Positions 2,083 to 64,000 are shown, counted from the stretch's first letter. The stretch is 64,000 nt of DNA from Psammoneis japonica (GCA_008632985.1 QPGO01000036.1:458182-522181), one strand, 5' to 3'. The notes: generated by a model from the letters alone, not told the origin. Numbers and translations are program-made.

Positions 2083-5000
2083 GGTTGAAGGATTTTTTGT
2101 GTTCGTCTCGCGCTGCGATCTTGTGAGCGAATTTTTCTGCGATTAATCGTTAAATAAGAATTTATATAAAAAATATGCTCTGAAGAATAAATAATGTGGT
2201 TCTCATCTTTTTCCAAATCTACAGAGATAAAAAGTAAAATCAAATAATGACAATGAGACATGGCCACACAATTGAGTTCTTCACACCCGCCAAATTTGAA
2301 CTTCATGCGACACCAGACCGCGTGGATTGGAATTGAGGTGGGCCTCTCTCTAGAACCCAATCTCTCAGCTTTTGGCCAGCTGGAGGCCCTCTCCAGCCAG
2401 TGGCAGCAAGTGGGTGGCATGCACTGCACATGGCAGTGACAGGCCAGGCCAAAAGCACCAAACATGCGCAGAACTCATCGCGCAAACAGACTGCCGCTGC
2501 TGCTGCGGCTGCTCCTCTCCTTGTGGGGCATGTGTGGCAACACCCAATTGCTTGGGTGGCAAAGAGCAAAGGGAAAAGCAGATTGATGAGTTGTTGAGCT
2601 TTGAGATGAAATCCACTCCCCCAACATGGGGGGTCTGTGTGTGTGAACTGTGCTCAGAAACTTGCAATGAGAGCGAGACTCTGGTGCTGCTTGGCATCTC
2701 TTGAGGTGGCCATGCTCGTCAACACTCACATTTGCAATCACCACATCAAACTGAAACAGTTTTAGAGACAACACAAATGATGCATCTGGGTGCCTTTTGA
2801 CAGAGAAATTGAAGATGACTGGGTGGAAGAAAACAGCAACTCCTTGCTGCCATCTAAACAGCAGATGAGTCTCCATGCAGAGACCATTGCAGGAGCCAAA
2901 AGACTGGTGTCATGATGTTGGCACTGCTGTTGTTGTTCTTGTGAGCCAAGTGGCTCAAAAGCAAGCTGCATTGCATGATGCACATGGAGCTGAGAGCACA
3001 CACAATTGTTTGTGACAAACTGAAATCTTGCTCAAATCCTGTCACCTTTCATGAGGCAACTCTGCTGCTTGGCATGGCTGCTGCTTCTGGTTGCTGAAAT
3101 GAATGTGTGCCCTCCCTGGCAGAGGCAAGCTGGCTGTGTGCCAACCAGATCTCTCTGCAGCTTGAGATTTCTTTTGACATGATCTTCATTTCTGAGGTTT
3201 GTGCATGTTTCTTGCACACCTTGTTTCTTCTTGCAACTCAGTGGGTTGATGGGGTCCTTGGCTTTCTGATTCATTCTTGTCTGCTTCTGAGTTGACCTGT
3301 TGATGTTGTTGCTGCTGTCCCTGTTGCTGATGGTGCTTTTTGGGCTTTGTGGTGAACATTCCTGACAAACACCTGTTCTTCTGCAGCAACCTTGTTCCTC
3401 TTGTTTGTCGCTCCTTGCTGGCAGCTTGGTTGTGGTGCAACTTTGATGTGTTTTGAAACAATGCTGCACTGTGCACAAGGAAAAGCCAAAGCCACCCTCT
3501 GACAGATCTCACCAAGCAAGGCCATCAGACAAGTGGCAAAAGCCACACTCTGAAGCATGTGGATTTGTCAACACGAGAATGAGCGCAACTCTGGCAAGAG
3601 CTGCTCACCTCTGTCTGATGGGCTTGAGAGTCCCCTCATCCCAGATCAGCTCCAGGCATGATCCCCAGTGGGGAGATGGCACTGGTGGTCTGCTCCCCTG
3701 TGCAGGCACTGGAGCACTTGCAGAATGACAATGTGATCCACATGTTGAGATGACATGTCATCACCCCAGCTCAAGATCACATCCAAATGCCATCTCCAAA
3801 AGACTTCCAACACTGCCAACTTCTTTCAAATTCTGCACACAATGATCAGAAAATTAAGAGTGCAAGTCCCAAATTTCCATGTTCTTGCAACTGCATTGAC
3901 TGTGTGAACAGTGAGCCCCGCTTTTCCTTTGTTGTTTCAGTGACAAGATTCTGTTGATCTGAGCCCTGAGATGGCTGCTTGTGTGACTGTGCAGTGTGTT
4001 GGTTGGCATTCATTTTGCACCTCCTTTTCACAATGACATGAAGCCATTCTCTTTTGAGATGCTTGTCACAAAGTTCATTCTTCAAAAACCTCAGTTGTTT
4101 GAAAAAAATTCATCCAAGCATGTGTTTTGAAACAAGAGCACCACATCATGAAGCTGGCAGAAAGTTCATTTAGAAACACACATGCAGTGTGCCATTGACA
4201 GAAGTGTTGAACAGATGAAAACAAACACATGGGCATGCTGTGCTTCAAGCCTGCAAACACGTGCAATGTTTCAAACACAAGATTGGATGGTGCTGCAGCA
4301 TGAGTTGTCAATGAAGGGACTGCAAGAAAAGAAGCACAAAAGACATGTGCCCCACACACCTCAAAATGCAAGAAGAAAACAGATGGGGAAAACAAAAAGC
4401 ATGAATTTGAGGGTTGTGAGGTGCAACGTTTAACTGTGCCTGTGGCTTTCGTCCCTTCCTGTGCTTGTTCAAGACTCAAGTGGTTCTCATTGCATGATGC
4501 TTGTTGCAGGAACAAAAAGGACATCACCATGGCCAGCTGGCAGAGTGCCTTCCTTTGCACATGGGCAGCAGGTGGCCATCAGCTGTGCTGCCAGGAGAAC
4601 CCACAGCATCATTCCTGAGTTTTCCTGCCCTGATTCTGGTGAACAGAGACTTTGCTTCACCACTTGCAGCAACTCCAGCCAGCGCGCACAACCTGTGCAA
4701 GTTGTTGTCAGATTCAACATGAGCCCCGCTGGTGCACCACATGTTCCCCACTGGATTTTTCACCTTTTTGGAGCGGGGCAACTTTTTGTGCATGTCTTTT
4801 TGAAGCTCCCTGTGTGTGTGGAGGGAGCAGCACGTGCACCCCGCCAGCCATCTGATGGACAGCTGCACACTTTCCCACAATGTTGATGTTCTTGCTCCAT
4901 CCAGATGGAGCAACTTCAAACAATGTGTGTTGTTGTTCCTCCTCACATCAAGTTGCCCTGAGGCAAATGTTGACACAGCCCTTGTGTGCTGCATCTTTGG

Positions 5001-5884
5001 CTTTGTGCACTTTTTTGCACTCACATGGTCATGGCTGCACTCACAATGCCATTTGTGTCTCCATGTGGTGCTCATGTCAACAGAAGAGATCTCTGGAAAA
5101 ATCATGAGAATGTTGTTCACTGAGCTGTGCAACAGGAAGAGCAAACGCAATGCTGTTGCAGCTCAAGGGCAAAGCAAGCAGCCATGACCCACACCCAAAC
5201 TTGCTGGCTCAAGCAGTGACATCTCAAGCAGTGCAGCACCTCCCAACTGCTGGCCAATGGTCAGCTGCTCTCTGGAGAGGCAACGGGTGGCATTGCATCT
5301 TCCTGGGACTGGAGTTTGTTCTTCTGCTTGCATGGCACCACACCACAGCCAGAGAGAGAGAGGAGGTGGGATCCTTGCTCACAACCAACAAAGCTCTCTC
5401 CCACTCTGCTGTGTTTTGTGGGGATGGCATTGCAAAATGTCCATTGTCAAATGGTTTCTGTCCATGCATGGCACATTGTTTGCTGTGGGGCTTTTTAGTT
5501 TTGTCATGACAACACCGGGTCTTAAAGGGAACAGCATGGCCCCTTGGTGGGAATGACTCTTTGTGACCAAAACTTGGCACATCACAAAAGTGAACAACAA
5601 CTGGAGCTCCAAAACTGTGTGAACCCACTTGCTGGCTTGAACCCAAGCATGACTTCAAAACAAGGGCACAAGGCTCATTGCAGACATTGCTCACTCAACA
5701 CATTTCCCGCAAAGCTGAAAGAAAATCTTTGGTGTGTTGGTGCACCATGTGCATCACTGCTCTCCTGCATTCCGTCATTGTCTGCTTCATCTTCATTGCA
5801 TTCACAGCAACGGGTGATGCACACCTTCTCCATCATGACAATGCTGAGGAGAACCAACAAATCATCGTGAAGCTCATGTGGGAA

Positions 5885-6037
5885 AAGAACAGTGCCGACC
5901 CTCTTCCCAGGTGCAGCAGATTGTGCCTGTCAGACAAAGACTGCCAAGGAGCCCTTGTCTGTTTCAAGTGCAAGCATTTCAGCAAAGTTCCTGGATGCCA
6001 AGGAAAAGGAAAGATGAGTGTTGGATGCTGCATTTGA
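5885..6037 (+). pseudogene. Decayed frustulin-type acidic cysteine-rich (acr-like) domain
   Basis: PLPRCSRLCLSDKDCQGALVCFKCKHFSKVPGCQGKGKMSVGCC follows the diatom pattern LgxCxGDCDxDxDCxxxLxCFqRxxxxxVPGCxGxGxxxxDYC. Confidence 0.6.
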
Positions 6038-8519
6038 CAAGGAGATGCTGTCACAAAGTCACTCAAGTGCATTTGAAAGAATCAATTCAGAGATCAAAGA
6101 TGAGGATTGTTGTGCACTCAAATGTCAGACAGGAGCAACGTTTGGTGATGCAGATGTGAAGAGGATGAGCAAATTGCTGCAAGTCTGAAAGATTTGCTGA
6201 AGTGCTGACAGAGGTGTCTGTCTGCCTTTCTTCTGATGGCTCTCTGTTCCACTGGGTTTCATGCTGTGCTGCCAGGGTGAAAACGTGTTTCCCAAGGAAG
6301 CGCACCTTTGATCATGGTTGATGGGTGATTTGTTTGCCCAACATGTGACAGGCATCTTCACCACAGAGAAGACAGAAGCTCCAGACTGAATGTCAAAATG
6401 TGACATGTCAGTCACCAAAAGTGTCTTCTCATCATGCACTGCTTCATCCCATCTGGTCAACCAACTCAGCTCCAGTTTGAATGCTTTGTCAGTGTTGTCA
6501 GTGTTCCCACTCTGCAGTTCATGTGAAAACAGAGTCAGCATCACATGAGTGACATGAGTGCAACCCTCCACCTGGGGGTGGCAGTCACTGTGCAGACTGC
6601 AGCACAATGACTGCCTCTGGCACTGAACTTGTCTCCCCATGTGTGACTCTTGTCAGTGGAGAACTTGGGCTGACATGTGACAACCACAAACTTGGCAATG
6701 AAGACCAAGTGATTCCATCCCATCCTGCACAGAAGAGACAAACTGTGGTGGTTGATCTGCAGTCGAAGTCTCATCCAGCTTCGTGCAAAATGACTGGCTG
6801 AGAGCACTCTAATGCTGACATGTGCTTGGGGTGCTTGGCCAGGCAGATGCAGCCCATTGACCCATGTCAATGCCGTCATGTGGTTGACGAGTGACTGACC
6901 CAAAAATCTTTTGTTCTTCAACTGCTGTGGCCCCTTGAGCTGAAGCATTCCCATGATCCAATGTGGTGGTGATGAGCATGAAAAGGTGCTTCCACCATGG
7001 GCACCATGTGGACAATGCATTCCGCTGGACAGGGACGGTGCATGTTTTGGGGAAATGTCTGGCAGGCTGATGAGTTGTGTGGCCTGAAAACATTCATCAT
7101 TGCCTTGCCCCACTGGTTCTCAAAGCTGTTCTTGCCCACATGTTGAAAGTGTTGCAAGGTTGTCAGGTTTTTGGTGGCATCCTTGAAAAGTGATGCAAGG
7201 TTGCAAAAAAGATGATTTTTGTCCAGGTTGCCAAAAGACTCAATCTCCAAATTGCAGATTGTGGTTGTGACCCATGGTTTGTGTGGCTTGACAATGATGT
7301 CATTGCCCGCCATTGTCGTCCATCATTGGCTGAGACATCATTTGGCAGCAGCATTGGAGAGAACGGGTGGCAACTGTGCTTTTCATTGCAACTGCCCTGA
7401 CCCCATGCACTGTGCCAGCACAATGAGCATCACCATGTTGAGTGCAACAACAAGCACCTCATTGGATCTTCTCTCAAGAACAAGCACATTGCATTGCTGT
7501 GTGTGTCAAAAGATGAAGTGGTCCAAAGGTTGAGCACTCCAGCAGTGCTCACAGCACAAAATTGTGCAATGCTGTTCATGATGTTGTTGAACAAAGCATC
7601 TCAGTGCACACACAAGCAAGATTGCAAGTTGATTGCACAGCTTTGCAAGCAAAAAGAGGAAGGGAATGCACAAAAGAAGTGCACACTGTTGGCACAAGCA
7701 GCCTTCATGACAGCACCTGGAAGAGTGGAAGCAACCACCAGTGCACAGAGTCATGGGCATCAAGCCTTGACTCACAAGCAAGAACAAGAGGTGCACATCA
7801 TGCTGGCTTCATTGTGTGCGTGTGTCTCCCCCCTGACCTGCCTCCATGACCAGCCAGAGACAGATGGGTGGTGAGACAAAGTTGGGATTTGGGGCTGATC
7901 ACTTTCAAAACAACTGAATTTGCAAGTGGTCTTTGCACACAAAATGGCATCCAATGACTTTCAAAGGCTTCAGGGTTGACATTTGAGGGAGGTGGTGGTT
8001 GTCCCCACTTCTTTCACTTGCACTTTGCTCCAAAAAGCTTGCAACTGCCATTGTGCAGCATTTCAGATTGGCACCTCAGGCATCATCCATGCCAAGCTTG
8101 CCACAAGCACACACACCAGGCCCACGTGTCTCTTGTTGTCAACTGGGGGCTTCACTGTGTTCCACATTGGCCAATGTAAAAATTCCTGTCATCAGCATGC
8201 TGGCACCAATGAAGAAGGTCTGGCCTTGAAACAAGTCTCTGGGAGAACAAGGCTGTGTGGCACTGGCAACCTGCGCACACCAATCTTGTCTTGCGTGCCT
8301 CTTCTCTCTCTCATGGAGCTGGCCAGTGACCTTTGTTGTGCAACAAGCTGTTGTTGTCAGGCAAGGTTGGCACTGGCTGCTGTTCTCTGATTTCTTTTTG
8401 CACCAAATTCTTTTGAGTCCTTGCAAATCCACTTTTCTCAACAATCTGTCCTTGCTTGCAAGCCTTTGATTCAAATTGCGAGTCTTGTCACTGCTCAAGA
8501 AACCCACAACAGAACAGCA

Positions 8520-9740
8520 TCATTGTCACATGGAGTGAAGCAATGATCAAGAGATTGGGAATTTGGGCACCATCGCCAAGGGTTTCATTGCTGTGATTGC
8601 AACAGAGCTTGAAGAAGACATTCTTGTTGATGTCAAAACAGAACTTCAAAGCACCTTTGGAGCCCTTGCCAAAACTCGATTGCATTCTTTCCTTTGCATG
8701 CTGCGCTGCCGATGTCAACTCACCAGGCCCCAGTTGCTCCCCATTGACCAAACACACTCAAATCAAGAATGGCAGGCATCTGCTGCAAGAGCTCATGGCA
8801 GAAGCGGATGGTGGATTCATTCAGATTGATGCAAGCATGGACACAGATCACAGTCATGTCAACATCACAGCCAGATCCAACTTCAGTGGCAAGAGTTGCT
8901 GCACACTCATCAGGTTGGAATGCTTGTGCACACAGCACATGTTGGATGCTGTCTTCCCTGTGATGCTGCTGGGATTTTCATGATGGATCAAATTTTAACC
9001 TGTGTCAGTGCTGAAACTCGCTCTGTGCCCCAGAGCAGCTTTCAGCTTGATCTGATGCAGGCAGCTTCCATTGTTTGTGGGAGCCCCCCATCGTCACTTG
9101 TGCTCATTGAGGAATTTGGAAAACGAGCACACGGACTCTCTGGAGTGCTGCTGGCTGTTCAACACTCATTCATCTTGTTTTGCTGGCATGCTTGCACCAC
9201 TGAAGGCACCAGCCCGTCATTTGGTGTTGCTGTTTTGTCAGCGGAAAGCAAAGAAGCTTTCTCGCATGAAATGCAAAGTCATTTGCATGACCCATTTCCT
9301 GGAAGTCTTCAGCTTGGGATTGCTTTCGGATGGTGCAGATGGAGGTTGTGCACGCCAATGATGGTGCACATTCCAGAGTCAAAGAGCAAGGATGAAGAAG
9401 AAAACTTTGGTGCAGCGCCCTTGTTCAAACCAGAGCAGGGTGTTGCCAAGTCGTTGGCAGGGCTTGTGTGTGCCAAGAGAGCTGGCGCGCAAACAAGAAA
9501 GTCCCAAATGGAGGAAAGGGAATCCTTGTTGCTGCCAAAGAAGATGGGTGCACCATGCAACTGCTCAAAGAAAGCATGAGTCTCCCAGAGCTAAAGCCAG
9601 AGGTGAAGGACGTCTTGTGCATGTTTCTGGGAGTCAACTCATTGGCAAATGCCACAGATGAACAGCTCAAGGTGCTGGGGTGTAAACTGGCTGCTGTTTC
9701 CATCCTGCAGCAGGGGCGCTGCAGTTGGGGGCAGCTTGCA
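8520..9740 (+). pseudogene. MSH5: MutS homolog 5 (MSH5) pseudogene, ATPase half, multiple frameshifts
   Basis: Across frames: LDCILSFACCAAD, IKNGRHLLQEL, Walker A remnant NFSGKSCC, QVGMLVHTAHVGCCLPCDAA, SVPQSSFQLDL, SLVLIEEFGK..GTSP, CMTHFLEVF, PLFKPEQGVAKS.AGLVCAKRAG. Confidence 0.85.
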
Positions 9741-12700
9741 CAGACAACAAAGAGACAAGACATGTGGGGTGATCAATCCAAGCATTTCTGCTTTTTCTTT
9801 TTTTTGGCACTTCTTGTGTTTCTTGCCTTCAGTCCTTCATTTCTTGGGCAGGAGTTTTGATGCAAGGGAAAGTGTGTTTTGCAGCAAAGGGACCAGGCAA
9901 AGCTGGCAGATGAAAATGATGTGGCCTGGCATTGCAATTGCAGAGGCATCTCTGTCCTTCCAAGGTGATCCTTTTGCACACAGCATCAAGCACAAAATGG
10001 TCTTGGAACTCTCTCAATGGCACACCAAGTGATGATGCAGACTTGCACTGCAAATTGAAAAGTGGCTGATGCTTCCACCAATGATGACATTCTGTTGCTT
10101 TGGTTCAGTGCCTGGAGCAGACAACAGATGATGCACAGCTTGTGGATTGATCGCTGCAACACACAACACACAAAAGTGCCATGTGCAAGGAGCACAAGCT
10201 TCAACACCACAGAGGGCAAGAAAAGCTGGCACTCCAACAAATGTTGGGAAAGGAAGTGGGTGCTGTTGCAGCCGCGCATGCTGGAGAATGCTGGAGAATG
10301 AAAGAAAGAAGAAAACTGGGGTGCAAGCCAATGGAACCACACCTTGGCAATTGTGTGTCTGTGACAAGATGATTGGATTTCATGAACACATGCATTCGTG
10401 CACAACTTTGGCCCATGCATTGCCGCCGCAGTGACACTCTCCAGTGCATCTTTCTGCAGCACCATGCAAGAGCCAATGTGGTGACACCATGAGCCCATGA
10501 CACCACAAGCCCAATGGCAAACACAGAATTCCCCACAAGCAGAGCTGCAAAGTGCATGCAGGTGGCGACAAGCATTTGACTTGAGTGGCAGTCTTGTCTC
10601 CTGCGTGAACGTTGTCTTGATGTGGATGGCGGGTGCAAAACGACAGCTGCTTGCTTGCCTCCTCTTTGCTCTTGTTTTCATTTTTGATGTTTTTTCAGGA
10701 TTTCCACACACACACCAATGCTTCCTTTTTCGAATTTTTGCAAGATCTCATTGTCCCTTTTGTCTCAAGTGAGGACCATGACAAAAGACATCAGATTGCT
10801 TGGCCACTCTGCCAGATTCTTTTGCAAGCTGCTTGCTTTTTCCATGAGGCATGTCCACCCATTTGTTTTTGTTGTGGATTTGCCACGCAGAGAGTTCATT
10901 GGCTGTAAGAGCCAATCACAGAAACAACTGCTCCTCCATTAATGCACCTCCGCATGAGCAGAAGGACTGCACTGCCAGCATGTGGGTGCACAGCTTGAAG
11001 CTGTCCAGCACCCAAAGACGTGCCTGATGTGCACAGGATTGGAGTGTGCAAAATTTTTGGTCATGATTTGGCGGGACTTGTGGGCATGAATCGAGTCCGC
11101 CAACTTGTGTGATGCCCGCGAGCCCCGCCCACTCAGCCGACTTGTGACACAAATGGTGTGCAGGCTGTGGGCAAGATTTTTTGTTTCAAAATGCATTGTG
11201 CATTGTTTGTGCAGTGGAGGAGTGTTGCAATCACCCTCAAGACATTGAGCGGGCTCTCAGTGCCAATGGCAAGATAAAGACAGTGCAAAAATGGCCTGTC
11301 ACAACCCTGGATGACAATCTGCCCTTGTTGCCACCCGGTGAAGAAGGGTTCTGGACATGCAATCCAGCGTGCTTTCCTTGTCCCTTTTCACTTTCATTTC
11401 ATGTCATGCCTCCAGACAATGCCCATGAAATGTGGCCACAATCAAACATCCAAGACTTCTCAACAGCAAGATCTGTTTCTTGCAAGCCAAACCAATGCAC
11501 TGGCAAGATTTGCCAATGCTTTCTGAACAAGGGTTTTCACATTTCAGTGCTGACCTGCACCTCTCTTGCATTGTCAGCTTGATGGTCAACTTGCACCCAG
11601 CAAACAGCTGCTGGCTTCATGCATGTCTTTGCTTTTGTGACAAAGTGTCGTGTGTCAACATCACAGAGTGAAGCCAAGAGAAGCTCAATGGCATGCTGTG
11701 AGAATCAACAATGGCTGCACGCTCTTGCTGCAGTCATGCAAGGACTCGATGCAGCAACTGACTGATTGCAGCTCTGAGCAGATGATGAAGGATGCCAATC
11801 TCAGCCTTTGATTTGATTTGTTCACAAACCACAGAAATGTGAACTGTCCTGCTGCTTTGCAGAGGTTTCATGTGAATTGGCAAATCTCATTGTCATCAAA
11901 CTTGAACTGATCCAGAATGGCAGATTCAAAATTGCGCTCTTCGAGAGTCTGCTGACGTTGCAACTTTCAATGCACTCAATCCTCTGGTCGAGGAGTGAGC
12001 AGGGTGTCTTCATTGAATGCCCATGTTGGAGTTGTTTTGGCAGCTGCCAATTGACTCATGAGGGCTTGTGTTCTGCATCAAGCTTGCACAGACATGCCTG
12101 TGAAATCTCCTGATGTGTTCAATGCCGTTGTCTGCACAATTGTTGTCAGCCATCCCTTGGCTTGAGTGTCAACTTTAAAGACATGTTGCATGCTTTTTCA
12201 AAAGAACAACAAGATTCAATGAGATGTCTTCTGCCCTGGAACGTGCCCTCAAAATCACCAAAGCTTGAGCATGTCAGGAACAATCAACTTGCTTGATCAG
12301 CTGTGTCAGCATCCATCCAATTTGAAGCGGCTGAGTCAGGCTCTGTGTTCAAAAGATCATCCTTTGCCACAGCTTGGGCAGTTGGCCAACCAATGCTTCA
12401 GATTGCAAAGGGGAAAACGCAGCTTGCAGATTCAATCTTGGACAAAAGAAGTCACTCAACAAATCATCAGGCAGAAGGAGTGTTGCACAAACATGGTGCA
12501 CTGGAAGCAGATGCCTGCCACTGAAGGAGGAACTTCCCATGTGGAAAAACTTTCTTTGCTTCACAACAAGTGCACACACTGCCTCAAGAATCTGTTGCGC
12601 TTCCTTTTCCTCTTCTATAAAGACTTCCTGACCTTCACATCCTGTGGCAACTGCAGGATGTTTGTCGGCAGTTGGTGGATGTTGCTTGCACCTGACTCAA

Positions 12701-13129
12701 AGCAGTCTGGGATGGCAGTGCTTGCTGGTTGCTCCAAGCAGCTGTGGCGTGCATTGGCGCTGAATCTCAGATGACCTGTTGTTGCTCATTTTCTTTTCCT
12801 TTTTCTTTTGCTTCTGCTGCTCTTGTCCAAATGACACTGCGTTGAGTTTGCACCACACAGCATTGTTGCCTCATTCACCACCAGCATGTTGAAGAACAGA
12901 GATGGCAACTGAGGTGCAAGCCTGCAGTGGTGGACTTGAATTCATTGGCCATTGCAACATCATGCAATGGTCAACATGCAGACAAAAAAGACTCACACCC
13001 AGATGTGGTGTGAGCAGCAAAACAGCTGGGGGGTGCTTTTGGGCTTGTCAGGAGCTGTGCGGAAAGAGAGTCTGCCAACACAGAAGCAGACAGACATTTC
13101 AAAATGCAGCAATTGTGCTGTGGGAAGTT

Positions 13130-13560
13130 GAAACTCAGAATTCTGCTGTGCATGGAGTGCCTTGGGAGGGTTCTTGCTTTGCACAGGTTGCGCGCATCAT
13201 CGATCAGTGATGGCACTGTCATGGAGTGCATGTGAACAAGTGGACACTGTCTTGTCACAGGAGGTGGAGACGGCAAGGTTCATGCTTTTTTGCTGACAGA
13301 TCTTGTCGACTTCTTGGAAACTCCAGATGGGACGACGATTGCCCCACTTCGCACCTGGTTGCATCACCACTTGTGGCAACTGCGCTCAAGGTGTTGCCCG
13401 GGGACAGAATGGCAACAGCCTCAGATGACTGCAAGGTTTCAATCATTGAACTCTTTTCAGATGCAGCAGCTTTGACTGTTCAAATGACACACTCATTGCG
13501 TTTGTTAGAACACCCGGCTGGTCGCCAGTTTGCCAGTGCGGGTCAAGGAAGCATGTGCAC
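13130..13560 (+). pseudogene. Decayed WD40-repeat gene fragment
   Basis: VATALKVLPGDRMATASDDCKVSII resembles a WD40 blade; only one convincing repeat. Confidence 0.4.
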
Positions 13561-17109: not shown

Positions 17110-17240
17110 TGGCTATTCGCCACCAACGCTGCTGGGGGGTGCGTCCCACTATAGTTAGGAGGCGGTGATTGGTGGTGTCAGCGCTTTACTGGGGTTTCTT
17201 GCCCTCTTTAGGCTCACCAGCAACCAAGACCGCCTCCGAT
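17110..17240 (-). repeat. Split direct repeat B2 (outer copy, TpA retained)
   Basis: 131 bp, matches 17402-17532 with 5 differences. Confidence 0.95.
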
Positions 17241-17264
17241 GAGGCGGCTGGGCGGGAGAGGAGG

Positions 17265-17397: not shown

Positions 17398-17401
17398 GGG
17401 A

Positions 17402-17532: not shown

Positions 17533-17611
17533 CCGCCACTCTTGGAGGGCCGAGAAGGAAAAAGGGGATGGGTCAGAAGCAGAGCTGAGGGTGGGTGAAG
17601 GCGTGGATGCG

Positions 17612-55400: not shown

Positions 55401-55890
55401 TTTTCTAGCGAAGATACCATCTAAACGTGGACAGCAAGATTCTCCAGCCCACTTCACTTTGATATCAACATCTCTCTGCCTTCACAATAATGGTACAGTA
55501 GTAGACAAGGTCATTCTTTGAAAATTGAGTCTTCGAGCTTAGCGGATCCAGTGTCTCATTACAAAGACATCATCGATGCAGAGCGAGGCCGTAGATTTCC
55601 CGCCCGAAGACAAATAATGTGGCGGAAGTCTCATAGTCCGGTACCGCATTTGTTTATATCATACGGTATTGATACAAGGAATGGCTAAGGTCCCAAATTT
55701 TAAGGAGACAGTCGAGATTCTGTCGGATTACGGGAGCCATTCCAACCTTGAGTTGCACCACTGACGTTCACCAGAAGCTTTTATCTGACATTTCTGCTCA
55801 TCTGCTTTGCCTTATTTTTCAAAAAGAACAACGACGAAATCATCAGCGTAATGAAGCTTGCTCCAAAATGTACGTCGTTTCTAGCCGTCG

Positions 55891-57028
55891 CTAGCCCGTA
55901 GAATGGCTGTCTGACTGTAAGAGGCAGCTGTTGTTTTGCATAATTTCATAGGCATGGGCCGCTCGTTTTTCAAACTCGGCCAGAGTTATCGATTCGCCCG
56001 GACCAAGCTCACGAGAAATCTTCTTGGCCAAGGCAATGACCACATCGTCGACATGATGATTCGTCTTTTCGTTCTCTCTGAGTAGTTCTCGTAGACCCAT
56101 CTCGATTTCGAGGGATGTCAAGGACTTGTCGCCATTCAAGAGCGTCAAAAAAGGCTCTCGTCAGCAACCCCCCGGACTGCAGTGCCTTTTTCACAGCATT
56201 ATGATTTTCCGCCGATAGAAGCCATCGTGCGTGAGATCCACCAGCCAAAGATTCAAGTTTGGCCGACACAGGTCTCCGTGTTTGGTGATCAAATCTGTAA
56301 AGAATCGGCACAGAATTGGGGACATGGAGCTTCGGCACAAGGTCCTCGGGTACGTGATCCAATGCTGCAATCAAGGATCGAATCGTATTGGAGTGCGCAA
56401 CAACAAGGACAGAACGTTGATCAGCAGGCGTTGGCAGATCTTGTTCTTCAAATAGTGAATAGGAAATTCTTTCATGAAAACATTCCATAGCGCGAATCTG
56501 ACAATCTCTCAAGCTCTCCGTAAGAGGTGCTGGTGGAGACGGTGACCAGTACTCGTTGTTTTTGTCAATGGGAGGTGGGCTGGCCTGCATGGACCGACGC
56601 CACTGTCTGATAACGTGTGATCCATATTTGGCAAGTAATTCCGGATCGTCCTTTCTCAATCCTTGCACAGCCCCGTAGTGTCGCTCGTTGAGACGCCAAT
56701 CCCGCCGAATCATGTTGGTGCTGCTCGCCTCTTGATTGCCGCCCTCCGACATGCTAGCTAGAGCCAATTCACACGTCTCATGAGCGCGCTGTAGATTGCT
56801 TGTAAAGGCTGCATCAACCTTGGCAAAGCCCTTAGATGGCAACAATTGACCCGCACCCACGGCTTGGACACGGCCCTTGACCGTCAGGGGGACGTCGACC
56901 CAGCCAGTAAATCGTTTGTCAATCCCGTTCCATTGAGATTGACTGTGGCGAAGTAAAATCAACGTGGAATACCGTGAAAAACTATTGTCGCTGACTTGTC
57001 GTCGACGCTTCAGGAGGGACGGCAACAT
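55891..57028 (-). CDS. 2,3-BPG-dependent phosphoglycerate mutase-like protein with C-terminal EF-hand-like region; frameshift at about 56137 (possible pseudogene)
   Basis: LLRHSQSQWN..RFTGWVDVPLT, WRLNERHYGAVQG, TESLRD, VVAHSNTIR; ..FDAL/NGDKSLTSLEI split across frames. Confidence 0.8.
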
Positions 57029-57209
57029 TGTTAATCTACTCCCCCCTCAAGGAGACATACGAGAAAGAGTGTCGACTGGTAGCCCATTCATCGCAAATTA
57101 CAGGAAGCTCCTTCGTCACTCTTCACACAGTTGGCACAAGTTGACGACGCGAGAGATAGATCTACCTAGGGCCCTACTGCTTGCCTCACACATCGCACGT
57201 GCTACGTAA

Positions 57210-60200
57210 CTGCCAGCGCTCATGCGCGCTTTGACCTGATGCTGGTGGCGCGGAAGAGGGGTGGAACTGTGACAAAAAGGGAGGGCAGGGTGGGTTTGGG
57301 GAAGGGGTGGCGAGTTGGGACTGCAATTTGGTGGAACAGCGGGTGAGCTGGTCGGCCAGGGATTTAAACGCAAAGCCAAGGCTTTGAAGGTCCCAGTGTG
57401 TGACGGTGCAGCCGCAGTGTGGTGAGCAGGGCCAAAGCAAGCGGCTGTGAGACACCCCGCTGTGCAGCAGCCGAAGCAGCAAGAGGGAACATTTCAGAGG
57501 GCAAGAGCCAGGTGCAGGCACAGGTGGCACAAGCAGCTGGGTGTCGGGAGGAGGGTTCGGTTGCCCAAAAGGAGGAGCAGGAAGGGCAGGGGCAGGGTGC
57601 TCCTCTTGAAAATGGGCAGCATGGCACATGGAGCAGGGAGAGATTGTGGAGTGAGAAGGGTTTGACAAGGGCAGCAAGGGAGGGTGGGGTGGGGTCAAGT
57701 GCTGGAAGGGCGACAGTGCTGCGATGCATGAAGACTTGGCAGAGGCACAGGGGGTGGCAGGATGTGGCCCATGTGTGGAGCAAGCAGGCACAGAAAAGGG
57801 GTCGCCAGCACTGGTGGTGGGGATGTGGGGTGTGGGTGGCATGTCCGAAGGAGCGGGCAAGTTGGGAGATGAGGGAGGGGGTGGCTGAGATGAAAATGGA
57901 GTGGCAACCTGTGCCTGGGTGGGAGGGGTTTGACTGGGCTGCAAGGTGTCATGGCAGCATTGGACATCTTCTTGGAAGGGCAACAAGGTCCAGGAGGCAA
58001 GAGGCAGTTGGCCGTCTGGGTCAAAAGTCAAAGTTGATGCATGCATCTGGCACAAGGAGGTGCAGGATGGAGGAGAGGCAGCACAGGTGCAGAAGAAAGA
58101 GCTCTTTTGGCTTCAGTGCTGCACAGGTGGGAGGAAAGACAGTTGTGTTTGGTGCAGAGTGTGTGTGCTTTTGGGTTGAGGTGGCAAAGTTGGTGCTGCC
58201 GGCGGCAGGTTGGCCTGAGAAGTGGAAACCAGCAGCAACTTCTGGGGGCAGGGGGCGGGGTTGGCTGTCAGAAGGGCCAAGGAAGGGTGTCGCTTGGTGG
58301 AGGGCAGCATCACTTGCTGCTGGGAGCAGGTCAGGCAAAGGACCAGAGCACCAGCAATGGAAGTGAGGGATGCAAGTCTTTGAGCCATCAGCTTCTTTTT
58401 GCCAATGTGCTCCAGCCCCAGGTGATGCACAAAACAACAATCCAGTTTGAGCCCAAATTGTGTGCTTCTCATGTGTGGAGCATCTTCACAAAAAAGCTCA
58501 TGTGGATGGGCTTTTGTGGGTGTCCAAAGCATGTGCAGCAGCTGGATTTTGCTTTTGTGCTGTTCAAGCTCTCATCATTGGACATGTGCCACAAACTCCT
58601 CAGCGGGCTTGGCACCAATGATCAATTGCACGACAGCACATTTGGGGGGGTGATGAAGCTCTTGCAGGCGGAAGCAATGCCTGCTCTAGAGAAAACATGG
58701 CAAGCAAGCCACCCACATTGACTTGCAAACATTTGGCACACACAAATCTTCAACATTTTCGCCAAATGTCATCTGCACTGTGCTGCGACTCATTTGTCAA
58801 AATGAAAAACATTGGTGGTTCAAAACACACCAACGACTTGCTGCACTGGTGTTTCAAAACATTGACACCCAGACAAATCTGTGCTTTTGGCAGTGAAAGC
58901 TCGGCCACAAGTCAGAGACCATGCTGAAACCATGCAGCACAATGGCCTGTGTGTGGCATGGCAACAAACTTCTCTTCCAAAGCTTGAAAAACAAGATGAA
59001 CAATCTGTCATTTTTTAAAGTTGCTCACCTTGAAGAAAAGTTGGCAGTTTTCTGGGTCATTTTGAGCTGCTTCAGCATTTTCGCAAAAAAACAATGAACC
59101 ACGAAAGCAATCTGCGTGTCAGCAATGTGCCTGAATCACAGTCGGGCGGGCAACAGGAATCATTCGAAAATGTCGCAAGAGTCACAACTGGCATTTTGCA
59201 TGAGGAAAAACACCAAATCGTGCAGAAATGGGCACAATGTCATCCGGCAGGGTGATTGGAGCCAGTGACTTTTTGGGAACTCAATTGAAATGTTGTCTGA
59301 CCAGAGGCACTTTGATTTGCATGGTGAAGAGCAACACCTTTGGTCAGACAACATTTCAATCAATTTCCCGAGAAGTTGACATTCGCACGTCAGAGGAACA
59401 AACAGGTGTCAGATGAAGCATGGACAGACCGCAAAGCATGGGAACTTTCACGCAGATTCTGCAAGACAAACGGGTGACAGACAGACAAATGCGACAGAAG
59501 AGTCGATTTCTGTCGTCCCCATGCTTTTTGTGTGGCATTCGATGCTGACAATGGTGTGCCACCGGTGATGCCATTGATCAATTTGCATGTGACGAATGCA
59601 CCACACATTTCGTTTGATGAGTGACAAGCACAGATGTGTGCCCACATCGACCGTGGATGCAGGTTGCAGCTGAATTCAGGGCGTCATTGTCACCAGCTGT
59701 TTCTACAATTTTCTGCATGAATTGCGTGCAGCAACTGCATGGAACATTGATGACAATGGCGTCATCTTGAATGGTTGATTGGAGCACTCAGACAGGCACG
59801 AGTGAGCCAAATGGTGCATCATTGAAATTGAGCACATTCACATTGTTGTGTGTGCATGCCTTAAATTAGTGTGGATGTTGTTTTCATCCCCATGTGGATG
59901 CCATTGTTGCTTCTCGTGTTGCACCGCACTTTTGTGAGTGTCTGTTGCATTTTTCGATTCAACCTCATCTTTTTTTTTGAAATTGTGCGAAATTTCTGTG
60001 TGAGTCAGCCGGGGTGGGGCCAGTTGGTCATGCACGTTTGGGTTTGATGTGATGCACAACTGGCCATGCCCTGCAGGAAAAGCTGTTGGTGGCAGGCAAG
60101 CAGAAGCAACAAAGCAAACAAAAAACATGGTGTGGGTCAAAACGTTGTGAAATGACGCGACAACAAACAGTGAGCAGAAACCCAACTTGGCCCATGAATG

Positions 60201-63200
60201 CAGTGCATGAATGTTGTCCAACCACTTCAGCAGCATCTCGTGTTCCCAGCTTGTAGATCAGTGAACGCCGCTCGCGTTTGCTTGCCATGGTGTTGTTTCA
60301 TGTTGGTCGTTGTCGTGTTGTTTGCGCGCGAAGAACACCGGATCTATTCATCTGACAGTGACTCTTTTTTGGTCACAGTGGATGTTCCACTGCTTGCAAT
60401 CTGAAGACATTTTGAGAAGCGCTTTGCGAAAACCCTGTTCGGACCGTCAAACAGAAATTTTTTGTGCAGATTCCAGAGTTCTTTCAGGGTGTTCTGCGAG
60501 ACTTTTGAATTGGGGCACACACATCATAAAGACCATAGAAAACTTGCACCGGCAGAAAATCCACCGCATGTCAACTCACACAGTGGCAATCCCACGTGTG
60601 TTCTACTTGCACCTCACACACGCACACACACCTGCACAGTCTAACAACCGCGCACACGTGCGCGAGACAATTGTGTCAGCAGAAAAATGCCAGCTGGAGA
60701 GCAGGCCCTGGCCAGTGAGAAAGTGGATGTCATGTGGTCAATGCAGTCATGCGAGTGAGGGGTGGTTGTCGCGCGCAGTTTTCGCGGGCTGTGCGCGTGA
60801 GATCCGAATCGATTCTGGCACCATTGTCAGTGTGTTGCCAGGTTTTTGTTGTCATTTTGGTGTGGCATCGATGGTCTCTGTGTGTGGCATGTCAGCAATC
60901 ATTCCGCATGAGTGGTCTGGCGCAAGTGGGGTCACTGGTGTTTGTAAAGGGACAGACCAGCTCCATCCTCCCATTGAGGACGTCTTGAGCTGATGATCTG
61001 GGACGAAGGGACACGTGATCCCCTGAGGCAACGGTGAGTCGCCCGCGCCAAAGTGATGCTCATTCTCACATTGACGTAGCCGCACACCTCTGAACATGGC
61101 TTTTGCCATTTCTCAGCTGGTTTTGCAGAGATTCTGCGCAGCACTGCTTTGGCTTCCTTGCCAAACAGTCCGTCGCATGATGCGACGAAGGGAGTGAAGT
61201 GACGTCATTGCTCAAGGCAGGGCTTGAGGCACTTGCGCTTTTTCTCTTGTTCGTGTTGTTCCAGAACTTCTTCCGGTGTCTTGGATGGGTGTGACTTTGC
61301 GTCCGTGTCCAGAGTGCGAACATCCATGACAGTGTCTGTCCTTTTGTCCCAAAATCCTTTGGACAAAAGATCTCCGCAGTCGCCATCCTTGGACATGTTG
61401 GAGTTTGTGTTGCCTTGGGAGTTGTTGGAGGAGCCTGGGCTTCCTGAGATGTGACCAATGGGGTTAATGAGGGGTTCGTCGTGTACGCAGGAGGGCTTGA
61501 AGGCCGTTCCAATTAGGTCACCGAGGTCATCACGCACATCGTCGTGTCATGAGATGACCAGGCCGCCCTTTTTGCACTGCAGGGCATGGGCAATGGAGAA
61601 TTTTCAGGCGCATCCATTGCAGTGCTCCGGGAGGTTGGGGGGAGTGCAGCCATGTCATAGATGGAGCGTGTCACAGAATTCTAGACAAGAGAGTTCCGTG
61701 CCGTTTATGATCGATGGGTGCACCGACAGCCATGCTCCAGTGCTGGTGCTGCGCTTGACAGCTCTGGCTTTTAGGTTGGTTGGAGTCCAGAGGATTGTCT
61801 TGAGTTTCTCCTCGTGCGTCTTGGCTTTCCTGTTGGCCACTTCTTCCTTCACTTCGCGCATGGTGTCCTTGTGGACTGCTGAAGAGAAATCTGAGTGGCC
61901 GCTGAGTGAGTCTGTCACGTGAGAGCACGTGAGAGCACTTGCTTCACAGTTTTGGGATGCAGACTCCTTTGGACGAGGGATGGACAGTCCTGCAAATTTG
62001 ATTGGGAGGGCAGATGGGGCCAGTCTCGGATCATCGTCTGCCAAGGTCTTGCCAATTGGTGCTGGAAGGAATTGGCGCTGGATCGCGCTCTCCACTTCTG
62101 CAAAGGATTCGCCGCAGTCCTTTGCCACCCATTGGATGCATTGCCACTGGTGTTGTGGGGACTTTTGAAGACCGGCACAGGCGGTCTGCGGGTGATGAAT
62201 CACTGCATTTGCAAGTCCTTGGACGACCGAGGTCCACGACTTGGCTTTCTCTGCTGGCCATCGGTCGCGTGCGTCCGTCTCTCCGACGAAGCCTCCGAGG
62301 TGGCGGCCACCTGAGCAGACAGTGAAGCCGAGGTCTCCAAAGCACGCCCTGGTGCTTTCCAGGTTGCGTTCTGGGACTGCCAGGATGTTCTTTTCGTCAG
62401 CGGCAGGGTGGCAACCATGCTTGAGTCCTTCGACTTGAAGAGCCAAGAAAAATTCCCAAAGGATGTTGAATTTCCCAGCTGCAGCAGAGTCGTCGGCGCA
62501 CCATGGCGTGAAAGCATCTTGACAGATGTCATTCAACTTGTGGACCAGCGGGAGAATGCCCAGTCCACAGGCCACCATGCCAAGTGGGTCACCCTGCGTG
62601 ACACCTTCCTTGCTGAACAGTGCGAAGGCGGTGCCAAAGTGTCCGTGGAGAATTGGGATGCTCCAATGCTTGCAGCTGTTGAAAGTGAACCTGGCGCCGG
62701 ATGGCCAGAGGTGTCCAACGTTGCACAACATTGGCACTCTGTTCTCTTCGTTGAATCCATTGGAGGCATCGACGAAGAGGAAGCTGCAGTCATCCTCAAA
62801 CTCATGCTGTTCCCAGAGGAGATTCATCGCATGAATCGCACCTTCAATGCCTGCTTCTAGACCTGCACATGGCTGATCCATTCCACAGGCCTCTTTGGCC
62901 TCTGCTCCAGCAACTGGGAGAACGGCTTTGGCCATGGCTCATTGCCATGCCTCTCCCATGCCAGCCGGGCGTGCTCCCGGGTTTTTGTCTAGCGCGATGA
63001 GTCGCTTTGCCATGATTGCACGGCAGGCGGCCCATGGGGGCGATTCGTTGGCCAGCCAGTTTGTGAATGTGCATGACGCCTCACGCAGCAATCCACTGGC
63101 TTCTCCGCAGCGGAGTGGCCACTGCGACACTGCATTGGCATCGGATCCACCAAGGCCTGCGCTCCCGGATGGTCGTCGCGCGACGGTCTCGACAGCACTG

Positions 63201-64000
63201 TCAGTGATCATGATGTCCTGGAGTTCAGGTGGTTCGTCGAATTTGTGAAACAGGTCTTCTTCCGGAATTCTCGGGTCCGGATGTTTCGATTCTGGTGCCT
63301 CAAACACGGTGTCCTTGGTCTTTTTGTCGATGTCATCGGGTGCGAGTGCTCCACCTTTTTCACGTTCCGAAATGCACCTGACTGCTCCTCTCAGGTTTCC
63401 TCGCAGCACCATTCTGTTGAATGTCTTGGCACGCTGCTCTGGCGTCTCCTCCTTCTGAACGGTCTTCAGATTGCTCTCAAGCAGCAGTTCGGTTGCTTGG
63501 ACCAACATCTTGTGCTTGTCTGTGTCCCAGTCATCCACGCGCCTGGTGAGCAGGGTTCCAATGTCCTTGGCTCGTTTTGCGTTGCGGCCCCACTGCAAAA
63601 TTGCTGCCTGGAACACCACGAACCTCTCCGAGTTCCACTTTTGCATCTTGACTCCATGTGGCAACTCTGCTGATGTTCTGATGAACCGTTTTCCTGCGGA
63701 ACCGTTCGGAACATCGCATCGTTGTGATGGACAGGGCATCAGCCGGTGCCAATGCTCTTGCCAAATTTTGTCATCCGATGTTCCACCATCCAGATGGGAG
63801 CCATCATTGAGGTGACAGGTCTCGCCGTGTGCCTCATGTGTGATTCGTTCCGCATCCAAATTGAAGTCGTTGGGTGCATTGTCGGGGTCGTCATGTGACG
63901 GAATTTTTGCTCCCTCCAAGCTCTCCTTGTCTTCCGGCTGCTCTCTTCCCCTTGAGGCAGTGTCAACCTCCTCACCATCGCTGCCCTCATCAGCATCCTT
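57210..64000. other. TpA-depleted block (unclassified relics plus CRE-like element)
   Basis: TpA nearly absent to the window end. Confidence 0.9.
60843..64000 (-). mobile_element. CRE-like non-LTR retrotransposon (RT + CCHC + restriction-like endonuclease), inactivated; 5' part beyond window
   Basis: RLIALDKNPGARPAGMGE, CAGLEAGIEGAIH, VDASNGFNEENR, GVTQGDPL, WCADD, CNGCA..HALQCKKGG..HDDVRD, GDLLSKGFW..TVMDVR..DTDAKS..EKKRK. Confidence 0.9.

Follow-up and report, generated by a model that had tools for sequence, protein, structure and literature searches.

The window analyzed here is a 64,000-nt stretch of the genome of the diatom Psammoneis japonica (GCA_008632985.1 QPGO01000036.1:458182-522181), and observed/expected ratios (obs/exp) of TpA and CpG were computed within these 64 kb, in 1-kb windows and per block. 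An intact COG6 gene and a histidine-phosphatase gene stand in two unmutated islands set among five sharply bounded blocks (A to E, Table 1), in which TpA obs/exp is 0.03-0.06 compared with ~0.6 in the adjoining genes; in 1-kb windows the values are 0.00-0.07 within the blocks and 0.5-0.9 in the flanking genic DNA. The trimmed block cores (27.5 kb) hold 69 TpA, or 2.5/kb, as opposed to 42.8/kb in the 25.7 kb of normal sequence with which they were compared for TpA survival, and stretches of up to 1,367 bp in the blocks have no TpA at all. The original prediction, made from the sequence by eye, had described six bounded blocks, about 20 TpA in the first 12 kb and normal TpA in neighboring genes. 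Our 1-kb ratios bear out the bounded depletion, as do the 23 TpA counted in the 12,285 bp of block A and the ratios of the gene islands (0.49-0.59) and flanks, while the number of blocks was roughly right, there being five sharp blocks and two partly depleted zones (the core of a retroelement and a small patch).

Table 1. Features of the 64-kb window, with TpA and CpG obs/exp where computed.
Feature	Position	Strand	TpA obs/exp	CpG obs/exp	Remarks
Block A	2246-14530	.	0.03	0.20	23 TpA in 12,285 bp
MSH5-like (MutS family) pseudogene	8545-9692	+			in block A; ~33% identity to diatom MSH5
GC-rich retroelement with split terminal repeats	17110-23478	-			repeats 17110-17240 = 17402-17532; 17265-17397 = 23346-23478
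Partly depleted zone, retroelement core	17265-22411	-	0.20	0.94
Second copy of the 52001-52391 MITE	22562-22952		0.54		TpA kept
Small partly depleted patch	26695-27425	.	0.14	0.71
Block B	41544-44705	.	0.05	0.11	10 TpA
Unmutated island between B and C	44706-47808	-	0.49	0.85
COG6 gene, intact	44878-47193	-			ORF, in B-C island
Block C	47809-51921	-	0.05	0.55	13 TpA; multi-copy element
MITE-like insert between C and D	52001-52391	-	0.27	1.01	only partly depleted
Block D	52397-54452	.	0.03	0.19	4 TpA
Unmutated island between D and E	54453-57207	-	0.59	1.03
Histidine-phosphatase gene	56009-57028	-			in D-E island
Block E	57208-64000	-	0.06	0.57	23 TpA; continues past window end
Retrotransposon reverse-transcriptase ORF	61658-62938	-			in block E; 0% Tyr
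ORF upstream of the reverse-transcriptase ORF	62942-64000	-			in block E; 0% Tyr

The borders of the blocks could be resolved to about 100 bp. To the left of block A a TpA occurs each ~10 bp through position 2245, the next ones being at 2351, 2763, and 2855, and at the right border of block B there is no TpA as far as 44706 and dense TpA from 44757, the block ending ~170 bp from the stop codon of COG6. Borders of this kind bear on the idea that a TpA to TpG/CpA bias acts on the whole genome, with only old neutral DNA having reached equilibrium and selection preserving the genes. The background TpA obs/exp is already just ~0.6 and the blocks are non-functional DNA, as this idea would have it; however, the borders are abrupt, and non-coding spacers beside the blocks have normal TpA (obs/exp 0.67 at 35500-38300, and a TpA each ~10 bp at 44757-44878). 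In addition, multi-copy families whose copies are at least 85% alike, and which are thus young, are already at 0.05, and one terminal-repeat copy has kept five TpA that its partner lost. We consider a genome-wide bias highly unlikely.

The affected DNA comprises two retroelement families, an element with a zinc-finger ORF, a host-type MSH5 pseudogene, and ~17 kb of unrecognizable DNA, and no viral hallmark gene was found among the targets in the window. As most of the block DNA has no recognizable homology, an origin as mobile or foreign DNA holds for only part of the blocks. In block A, where TpA loss is saturated and CpG loss deep, the DNA is mostly unrecognizable, and its stop-free ORFs gave nothing in Pfam beyond a MutS_V match. 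Block C encodes a Tyr-free ORF of 474 aa with zinc-finger-like motifs (zf-C2H2_4, E = 0.012). The GC-rich retroelement has a weak RVT_1 match (E = 0.1) and a YVDD motif that can be read in translation; with its intermediate TpA level it looks like an element in which hypermutation is under way.

Copy number was judged from k-mer contigs of a single DNA run (one sample, one study), in which the summed contig depth at single-copy level is about 59. Blocks B, D, and the start of E have depths of 59-116, at or near single-copy, while block C reaches 2,600-5,200 and the 390-bp MITE ~80,800. Thus the multi-copy blocks C and E are affected and so are the near-single-copy blocks B and D, whereas the abundant MITE is largely spared, as are the old tandem gene paralogs at 28.3-35.5 kb. 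A paralog of 41560-41726 is also unmutated, although the shared length is only ~166 bp. The claim that the process is confined to repeated and duplicated DNA therefore has to be narrowed: the changes do keep to bounded blocks in which the DNA is mobile or degenerate, but restricting them to duplicated DNA is too strong.

The blocks have lost CpG too (obs/exp 0.11-0.20 in A, B, and D; 0.55-0.57 in C and E), with borders that coincide with those of TpA depletion to ~100-250 bp, and TG+CA obs/exp rises to 1.6-1.9, CpA being doubled. Taken over blocks A, B, D, and E1, TG+CA rose by 8.75% of dinucleotides, which balances the 8.66% by which TA+CG fell; the change of CpG to TpG/CpA removed 4.6% of dinucleotides from the blocks. 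TpA had been proposed as the source of the TG/CA excess, which is correct for part of it; half comes from CpG, which the prediction missed. Base composition is unaltered, with a GC content of 0.48 both inside and outside the blocks. The oldest blocks are also enriched in GpC (obs/exp 1.3-1.5), and simulation of both conversions fails to produce this excess, which reflects either a third process or a different ancestral composition. ApA/TpT is not depleted (AA/TT obs/exp 1.20-1.29 in the blocks, ~1.1 outside), and for this reason the suggested pol-eta-like WA to WG repair, which would target ApA as well as TpA, does not fit and was rejected.

Several comparisons show that the TpA-poor state is derived and not ancestral. 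In the terminal-repeat pairs of the 17110-23478 element, whose members were identical when it inserted, 10 of 11 differing sites are TA in one copy and TG or CA in the other (5/5 and 5/6 by pair), the TG/CA state always being in the copy within the depleted zone; one copy keeps all of its TpA and its partner, 25-290 bp away, is without them. In reads from other genomic copies, among the 40 differences listed (there were 736 further ones), 16 places are TG or CA in the window but TA or CG in the other copies, and the opposite direction was seen inside blocks at three. The normal-composition paralog of 41560-41726 departs from the window at 11 letters, and at 7 of these it has TA or CG opposite TG or CA. 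A further 79 related metagenome loci have TpA obs/exp of 0.28-0.92, none being lower. That the blocks lacked TpA and CpG by ancestry, for example because foreign DNA brought its own dinucleotide bias, is supported by the composition itself and nothing else; it is refuted by these relatives, by copies elsewhere in the genome in which such sites are TA or CG, and by conserved Tyr codons that read TGY or CAY, and we give it next to no probability.

The coding remnants record the same change. In the reverse-transcriptase (RT) ORF of block E none of seven conserved Tyr columns is kept, all seven reading Cys or His, as opposed to 116 of 153 other conserved columns that are kept (Fisher p = 8e-5). 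Five times a conserved Leu has been replaced by Pro with the codon CCA (CTA to CCA), and the catalytic motif is CADD where the homolog consensus is YADD. The MSH5-like pseudogene covers ~340 residues of the C-terminal part, is interrupted by an in-frame TGA, and has some unalignable stretches; both of its conserved Tyr are His (CAC), and only one of seven conserved Arg is kept, the others being Cys (TGT) twice, His (CAT), Gln (CAA), and Gly twice. Five long block ORFs (308-474 aa) have 0% Tyr. The reading of Tyr as Cys or His had been predicted and is found wherever homology is readable.

Both strands were changed within one ORF, sense Tyr to Cys beside antisense Leu to Pro and Tyr to His, and TG and CA outcomes are randomly interspersed along the blocks (runs-test z -1.5 to +1.8). 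A single transition per site, on either strand, is supported as the explanation of both products, as had been proposed; because the site is palindromic, a lesion on its A and one on its T leave the same sequence. Repeat pairs, other copies, and conserved Tyr thus agree on the predicted derived, strand-symmetric change of TpA to TpG/CpA. ADAR-like A-to-I hyperediting of retrotransposon transcripts, fixed through reverse transcription, is a process that might be expected where two blocks contain retroelements, and ADARs favor a 5' U. Their 3' neighbor preference, however, is G, whereas the preference here is for a pyrimidine (see below), and such editing does not account for changes on both strands of one ORF or for the affected host-gene pseudogene and near-single-copy unrecognizable DNA. 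Moreover, a single inserted copy has terminal repeats that are no longer identical, which places the change after integration. We regard RNA editing as almost certainly not the cause.

In the consensus of nanopore assemblies modified A is miscalled as G and modified C as T, and a base-calling or assembly artifact would be conceivable if dense CpG and TpA modification were misread and the consensus chose TG or CA randomly. CA/TG double differences between the window and the read contigs at 42229-30, 41640-1, and 48951-2 are as expected of strand-dependent miscalls, and the reads are not an independent chemistry, since the same run may underlie the assembly and its library type is unrecorded. 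Against this, the run assembled into long contigs (pieces of 16.4 kb and 5.3 kb) at an even ~59x depth, which points to accurate reads. The contigs match block B (3.2 kb) but for two letters, one CA>TG pair, and block D with the start of E but for one, CG>TG; these three, the only letters by which the window and the single-copy contigs differ, all lie in blocks and at CA/TG or CG/TG sites, a hint of a raised mutation rate there from too few sites to count. The same site also differs in state between genomic copies, repeat partners 25-290 bp apart differ in having all or none of their TpA, and other public assemblies (P0204, P0312, and P0316) contain Tyr-free relatives of the block E RT. Finally, Illumina-sequenced lines of Bigelowiella natans acquired this signature de novo (Mettrop et al., 2026, bioRxiv preprint, 10.64898/2026.01.13.699255). 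Taken together, these observations make an artifact very unlikely.

The surviving TpA are not a random sample. Survival relative to normal density is 0.003 for RTAY, 0.048 for RTAR, 0.041 for YTAY, and 0.20 for YTAR, with 41 of the 69 survivors in YTAR where 17% would be expected (p = 7e-15). Products are consistent with this flank rule (RCAR > RTGR, YTGY > YCAY), as are 11 of 13 polarized asymmetric sites (one-sided binomial p = 0.011), the other two violating it. Judged from the surviving sites and the products, the preferred site would be 5'-TAY-3' on the strand where the change shows as A to G. CpG survival, on the other hand, is flat over flanks (0.34-0.39).

This difference, and the uncoupling of the two losses, bear on whether they have one cause. 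The retroelement core is at 0.20 for TpA with CpG at 0.94, and blocks C and E have TpA of 0.05 with CpG of ~0.55; no zone in the window has lost CpG and kept TpA, and CpG loss trails TpA loss across the zones. A single bifunctional domain-targeted deaminase, whose substrates would be an A preceded by T and a C or 5mC followed by G and which would always leave 5'-TG-3' on the edited strand, would make both losses one defense. Such an enzyme would account for the shared borders and for losses that both end as TG/CA and are equal in size, and ADAT2 enzymes are reported to deaminate A and C (cited in Mettrop et al., 2026). It is nevertheless improbable given that 80% of TpA was lost from the retroelement core with no CpG lost, that flank dependence is strong for TpA and absent for CpG, that the hypermutable regions of B. 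natans are described as essentially without GC to AT gains (Mettrop et al., 2026), and that decay of 5mCpG is a sufficient and familiar cause of CpG loss. Such decay would be expected here since diatom transposable elements are CpG-methylated through DNMT5a (PMC9998398). The CpG half of the signature, with its flat flank profile, is like 5mCpG decay, a process that cannot remove TpA.

Programmed hypermutation of invading DNA is established in fungal RIP (C to T) and in the vertebrate APOBECs. RIP acts mainly at CpA, creates TpA and AT-rich tracts, and needs duplication and a homolog of the RID methyltransferase. The diatom blocks resemble its products in that the change is at the DNA level, transition-only and dinucleotide-specific, wrecks mobile DNA in bounded tracts, and leads to extreme dinucleotide indices. 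They differ in that TpA is destroyed, CpA is doubled, and GC is unchanged; the choice of targets differs as well, blocks close to single copy being affected and the MITE, for all its abundance, being spared. Fungal RIP was therefore rejected, in keeping with the prediction that neither RIP nor 5mC decay alone would explain the blocks.

The prediction also knew of no described mechanism of this kind, a statement that is out of date: a TpA-directed, GC-neutral counterpart was reported once previously, in the 2026 preprint on B. natans (Mettrop et al., 2026). There, integrated NCLDV and virophage DNA undergoes de novo TpA to TpG/CpA hypermutation, with 230 of 231 regional mutations in mutation-accumulation lines (Illumina) being A to G or T to C, all at TpA, at a rate about 1000-fold over background; clusters of TpA-poor, CpA+TpG-rich windows in the genome are enriched in RT and DDE domains (Mettrop et al., 2026). 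Our literature search returned no report of TpA hypermutation in diatoms. The two systems share the TpA to TpG/CpA change, its strand symmetry, and its restriction to bounded regions with the rest normal, in the diatom as seen within the 64 kb; the regions affected are non-host or mobile DNA in B. natans, and in the diatom this holds for part of them. Unlike the chlorarachniophyte (rhizarian) host of that study, the host here is a diatom (stramenopile), the change is saturated (the NCLDV region described has a Rho of 0.45), and the targets recognized are retrotransposons and a host-gene pseudogene. The B. natans rate was measured de novo, whereas the diatom blocks are known from an accumulated sequence state. 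CpG is co-depleted in the diatom, by a separable and slower change that sets the blocks apart from a B. natans spectrum almost without GC to AT; the term CpG occurs 0 times in the preprint text. That text, supplementary tables apart, is also without the words flank, context, and trinucleotide, and a 3'-pyrimidine flank rule is seen here.

We believe it likely that the blocks were produced by region-targeted, DNA-level TpA hypermutation together with CpG decay, and that the former is the same kind of process as in B. natans; the interpretation originally offered is thus partly supported. Retrotransposons, the dead MSH5 copy, and other degenerate DNA probably make up chromatin-like domains, their borders sharp to ~100 bp, inside which TpA has become TpG or CpA by one transition per site on either strand. 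A second, slower change, presumably the decay of methylated CpG, has converted CpG to TpG/CpA within the same borders and with no flank preference. In the coding remnants Tyr has become Cys or His, CTA-Leu has become CCA-Pro, and Arg has become Cys, His, or Gln, which ruins the coding capacity of the targets and leaves base composition constant.

The natural target of TadA/ADAT enzymes, A34, follows U33, and the target loop of bacterial TadA reads U-A-C. These enzymes, like the adenine base editors developed from them, are adenine deaminases, and the loop matches the 5'-TAY preference, which we take as a lead only. The enzyme could be a TadA/ADAT-type adenine deaminase that is targeted to the domains and forms deoxyinosine at TpA, a candidate that we put forward tentatively and at somewhat less than even chances. 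ADAT2 was proposed as the B. natans enzyme by the authors of the preprint, which cites sparse reports of natural DNA activity in the TadA/ADAT family (Mettrop et al., 2026). More speculatively, stramenopiles and rhizarians may share an old chromatin-guided "adenine RIP," in which a TadA/ADAT-type DNA deaminase would be recruited to silenced, CpG-methylated domains and edit 5'-TAY-3' on both strands, removing all Tyr codons and TAA/TAG stops of the invader with GC unchanged. The process observed in action in B. natans would then have run to completion in the diatom blocks. We think this rather unlikely.

The saturated end state in a diatom suggests that the process is probably not confined to one species, and TpA hypermutation may be common across the SAR supergroup, the dominant group in marine primary production. 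The blocks make the long-term outcome visible, with Tyr codons and TAA/TAG stops wholly lost from the targets and genes ~170 bp away spared, and they place constraints on a search for the enzyme: a 5'-TAY preference, action on either strand, no strand processivity, and borders common with CpG decay. They also have a consequence for annotation. Because only TGA stops remain, such blocks give long spurious ORFs, and they evade homology-based masking of transposable elements, as evidenced by a significant Pfam domain in only 1 of the 221 stop-free block ORFs scanned.

Depletion of TpA was first scanned in sliding 1-kb windows, and block borders were set from the TpA positions themselves. Observed/expected (obs/exp) values of 0.00-0.07 in the 1-kb windows of five blocks, as against 0.5-0.9 in the intervening genic DNA, bear out the TpA-depleted blocks amid normal genes of the original prediction. 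Block borders are abrupt. At the left border of block A, there is a TpA about every 10 bp up to position 2245 and then only those at 2351, 2763, and 2855. At the right border of block B, TpA is absent up to 44706 and dense from 44757; the COG6 gene next to it is intact, and its stop codon lies ~170 bp from this restart. The COG6 product has 48-54% identity to proteins attributed to Cylindrotheca, Pseudo-nitzschia, and Bacillariaceae, and the host was placed among the raphid pennate diatoms. A genome-wide TpA bias resisted by selection alone is argued against by the normal composition of non-coding spacers outside the blocks (e.g., TpA obs/exp 0.67 at 35500-38300).

Coordinates of TpA-poor blocks, part-depleted zones, and repeat elements in the window.
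Feature	Position	Strand	TpA (n)	TpA obs/exp	Remarks
Block A	2246-14530		23	0.03	
Block B	41544-44705		10	0.05	
Block C	47809-51921		13	0.05	
Block D	52397-54452		4	0.03	
Block E	57208-64000		23	0.06	Continues past window end
Part-depleted zone	17265-22411			0.20	
Part-depleted zone	26695-27425			0.14	
MITE-like element	22562-22952	+			~390 bp, terminal inverted repeats read by eye
MITE-like element	52001-52391	-			~390 bp, terminal inverted repeats read by eye
Retroelement	17110-23478	-			GC 0.62, split direct repeats in order R1-R2-R1 ... R2

The blocks are also depleted in CpG, which the original prediction overlooked: obs/exp is 0.55-0.57 in C and E and drops to 0.11-0.20 in A, B, and D. 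The frequency of TG+CA is almost twice that expected (obs/exp 1.6-1.9), and GC is 0.48 both inside and outside the blocks. In blocks A, B, D, and E1 (part of block E), TA+CG loss amounts to 8.66% of dinucleotides and TG+CA gain to 8.75%, so that the composition is as expected from two transitions, TA->TG/CA and CG->TG/CA. When both conversions were simulated on the normal DNA of the window, the shift of all 16 dinucleotides was reproduced with r = 0.95 and the direction of change of the 12 by-products with r = 0.76; the simulated GpC rise was smaller than that seen in the blocks. The GpC rise (obs/exp 1.30-1.48) is confined to those blocks in which CpG loss is deepest (A, B, D, and E1), where the drop in TpC/GpA also exceeds the prediction of the two conversions; both could reflect a third context-dependent process or a differing ancestral composition.

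As TAA and TAG are gone from the blocks, leaving TGA as the only stop, many long spurious ORFs arise by which gene callers would be misled: 125 stop-free ORFs of at least 100 aa overlap the block regions, on both strands. A Pfam scan of these 125, together with 96 ORFs of 55-99 aa from block A only, gave MutS_V as the sole significant match, and most block DNA is unrecognisable. When the retroelement ORFs were considered at E <= 5, only a weak match to RVT_1 (E = 0.1) and one to zf-C2H2_4 (E = 0.012) were added. A DNA self-comparison of the window gave no block-to-block matches, the sole matches being those among repeats of the retroelement and between the two MITEs. When every ORF of the window was searched against the blocks by tblastn, no pseudogene copies of neighbouring genes were identified.

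The TG/CA state of the blocks is derived rather than ancestral. In the retroelement, the terminal repeats 17110-17240 and 17402-17532 differ at five sites, all five TA vs. TG, and the repeats 17265-17397 and 23346-23478 at six, five of them TA vs. TG/CA and one CG vs. CA. In both pairs the TG/CA state is found in whichever copy sits within the TpA-poor zone, and hence 10 of the 11 changes since insertion of the retroelement fall at TpA. Divergence between the two MITEs is too great for polarisation, with 83 differences that include 39 transversions and TA-type differences of only 7 vs. 2.

Contigs of the one DNA run identified, from a single sample that is possibly the assembly's own source, were compared with window positions 40001-60000. 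Block B was recovered in a single 16.4-kb read contig with two letters different, and block D with the start of E in a single 5.3-kb read contig with one letter different. This agreement, perhaps within the same sample and not from an independent chemistry, excludes a one-off assembly glitch. Among the 40 differences listed between the window and other genomic copies (there were 736 more), TA or CG stands in the other copy where the window has TG/CA at 16 places, and the reverse state, TA/CG in the window, at three places inside blocks; there are also three adjacent CA>TG double differences, which independent mutation of one ancestral TA/CG in two copies would give. Over all differing places there are 134-157 transitions per type vs. 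17-27 transversions per type. A base-calling artefact induced by DNA modification would imitate several of these features, CA<->TG flips included; we consider it very improbable, as the read contigs are long, near-identical to the window, and even in depth, states differ between copies, neighbouring repeat copies are unlike each other, and the same process arose de novo in Illumina data of Bigelowiella natans (bioRxiv 10.64898/2026.01.13.699255). Differences between the window and the single-copy read contigs are limited to 42229-42230 (CA>TG) and 57711 (CG>TG), all in blocks; these could be haplotype or strain variants from the same processes, hinting that they are recent or ongoing. Run X2 covered genic parts alone of 40001-60000 and left the blocks uncovered, an outcome to which we gave no weight with regard to expression.

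Two coding remnants record the outcome at the protein level. The ORF at 61658-62938 (minus strand) in block E is a member of a large reverse-transcriptase (RT) family of 4,517 representatives (E <= 1e-3), and RVT_1 is matched by three of five tested relatives. Against 150 representatives, none of its seven conserved Tyr is kept and all seven read as Cys or His, the substitution originally predicted for the blocks, whereas the other conserved columns are retained in 116 of 153 cases (Fisher p = 8e-5). Its catalytic motif is CADD, vs. YADD in the family consensus, and five conserved Leu are now Pro encoded by CCA, i.e., CTA->CCA. The second remnant, an MSH5-like pseudogene in block A (8545-9692), comprises the C-terminal ~340 residues; there, both conserved Tyr are His, and one of seven conserved Arg is kept, the rest being Cys (two), His, Gln, and Gly (two). 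Tyr is wholly absent from five long block ORFs, vs. 2.2-4.0% in three normal ORFs.

Of the 145 other RT-family representatives analysed, one (P0204, from an ENA metagenome contig) shares the complete Tyr->Cys/His loss (6/6), and Tyr is at 0% in two shorter RT relatives (P0312 and P0316), from which we infer that the signature is present in other public assemblies. A search of metagenome contigs for the P0204 locus gave 73 pattern matches, none of them confirmed. At 79 metagenome loci of the same RT family, obtained by a search that favours intact copies, TpA obs/exp was 0.28-0.92, with none near 0.05.

The TpA conversion is a post-integration event at the DNA level that affects both strands. 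Tyr->Cys (sense) is present together with Leu->Pro and Tyr->His (antisense) within one ORF, a pseudogene that is not a retroelement is affected as well, and the repeats within a single inserted element are unlike. The TG and CA outcomes are interspersed at random (runs-test z of -1.5 to +1.8 in six block segments), and this lack of clustering shows that there is no long single-strand processivity. A pol-eta-like WA->WG process, originally offered as an alternative, is excluded, since AA/TT shows no depletion in the blocks (obs/exp 1.20-1.29). Neither 5mC decay alone nor ADAR-type RNA editing explains the signature.

Survival of TpA in the blocks, expressed relative to normal density and by flanking context for the 69 survivors, depends strongly on the flanks. 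It is 0.003 in RTAY (one site remaining), 0.048 in RTAR, 0.041 in YTAY, and 0.20 in YTAR, which holds 41 of the 69 survivors vs. 17% expected (p = 7e-15). The best-surviving contexts are TTAA and TTAG, and no ATAT, GTAT, or ATAC remains in the blocks. An additive two-strand model, in which the rate per strand is set by the base 3' of the A (TAY ~2.9, TAR ~0.8), fits these values, with a predicted survival of the mixed classes of 0.025 vs. the observed 0.04-0.05. Block products match the model at asymmetric sites (RCAR > RTGR and YTGY > YCAY), as do 11 of 13 polarised asymmetric sites read from the alignments (one-sided binomial p = 0.011, hand-worked). Since TpA is palindromic, A->G after T and before Y is indistinguishable from T->C before A and after R on the other strand, and the lesion could be on either the A or the T.

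CpG loss behaves differently. CpG survival is flat across flanks, at 0.34-0.39 in all four classes, and the loss trails that of TpA. In the retroelement core (17265-22411), 80% of the TpA but none of the CpG is gone, and in C and E, both multi-copy, TpA is at 0.05 yet CpG at ~0.55. Both dinucleotides are lost in A, B, and D only, and the window has no zone with CpG lost but TpA kept. The borders of TpA and CpG depletion agree to ~100-250 bp. We read this pattern as two processes that would be bound to one chromatin domain, TpA removal being fast and CpG loss slow. The slow process is most simply a putative decay of methylated CpG in these blocks; diatom transposable elements are CpG-methylated via DNMT5a (PMC9998398).

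The original prediction knew of no described precedent, which is out of date, as the B. natans preprint reports the same signature (bioRxiv 10.64898/2026.01.13.699255). In 15 Illumina-sequenced mutation-accumulation lines, integrated NCLDV and virophage DNA took 231 of 302 nuclear mutations, of which 230 were A->G or T->C, every one at TpA; mutation rates in integrated viral DNA were ~1000-fold over background, the genome has 124 clusters of TpA-poor, CpA+TpG-rich windows, and the authors propose an ADAT2-type deaminase (bioRxiv 10.64898/2026.01.13.699255). That preprint alone matched in our literature search, which found no report of a TpA->TpG/CpA signature in diatoms; PMC9258296, a further match, proved unrelated. 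The core of the original prediction is supported, namely a targeted, strand-symmetric hypermutation of TpA to TpG/CpA by which mobile DNA is disabled, and the observation is confirmed and extended as a second described case of TpA-targeted hypermutation. Beyond B. natans, it adds another lineage, a saturated end state, a flank rule (5'-TAY), and borders common with CpG decay; the words "CpG," "diatom," "flank," "context," and "trinucleotide" do not occur in the text of the preprint (bioRxiv 10.64898/2026.01.13.699255).

The blocks were correctly held not to be a product of fungal-type RIP. Fungal RIP creates TpA, and the diatom-block signature is the opposite, with TpA removed.

The predicted restriction to repeated DNA did not hold, and targeting is not simply of repeats. 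Taking summed contig depth of the DNA run as a rough guide to copy number, with single-copy DNA at ~59, block C (2,600-5,200) and block E at 58-60 kb (550-2,200) are multi-copy, and depths equal or close to those of single-copy DNA were obtained for B (59-76), D (105-117), and the start of E (84). The MITE, with a summed depth of ~80,800 by far the most abundant sequence in the 40001-60000 stretch, keeps TpA in its plus-strand copy (0.54) and is part-depleted (0.27) in the copy between C and D. The TpA-poor domain at about 17210-22411 is shorter than the retroelement, and the MITE lies within the unmutated tail. The repeat layout of the retroelement resembles that of DIRS/PAT-like elements. 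A tandem array at 28313-35455 (minus strand) contains five ORFs of two alternating paralogue types with 27-35% protein identity, one of them with a weak Pfam match to Fea1 (low-iron-inducible periplasmic protein); as these paralogues are normal in composition, old diverged duplicates are not hypermutated. Two His_Phos_1 genes in opposite orientation, 39853-40995 (plus strand) and 56009-57028 (minus strand), flank the region from block B to D and are of normal composition.
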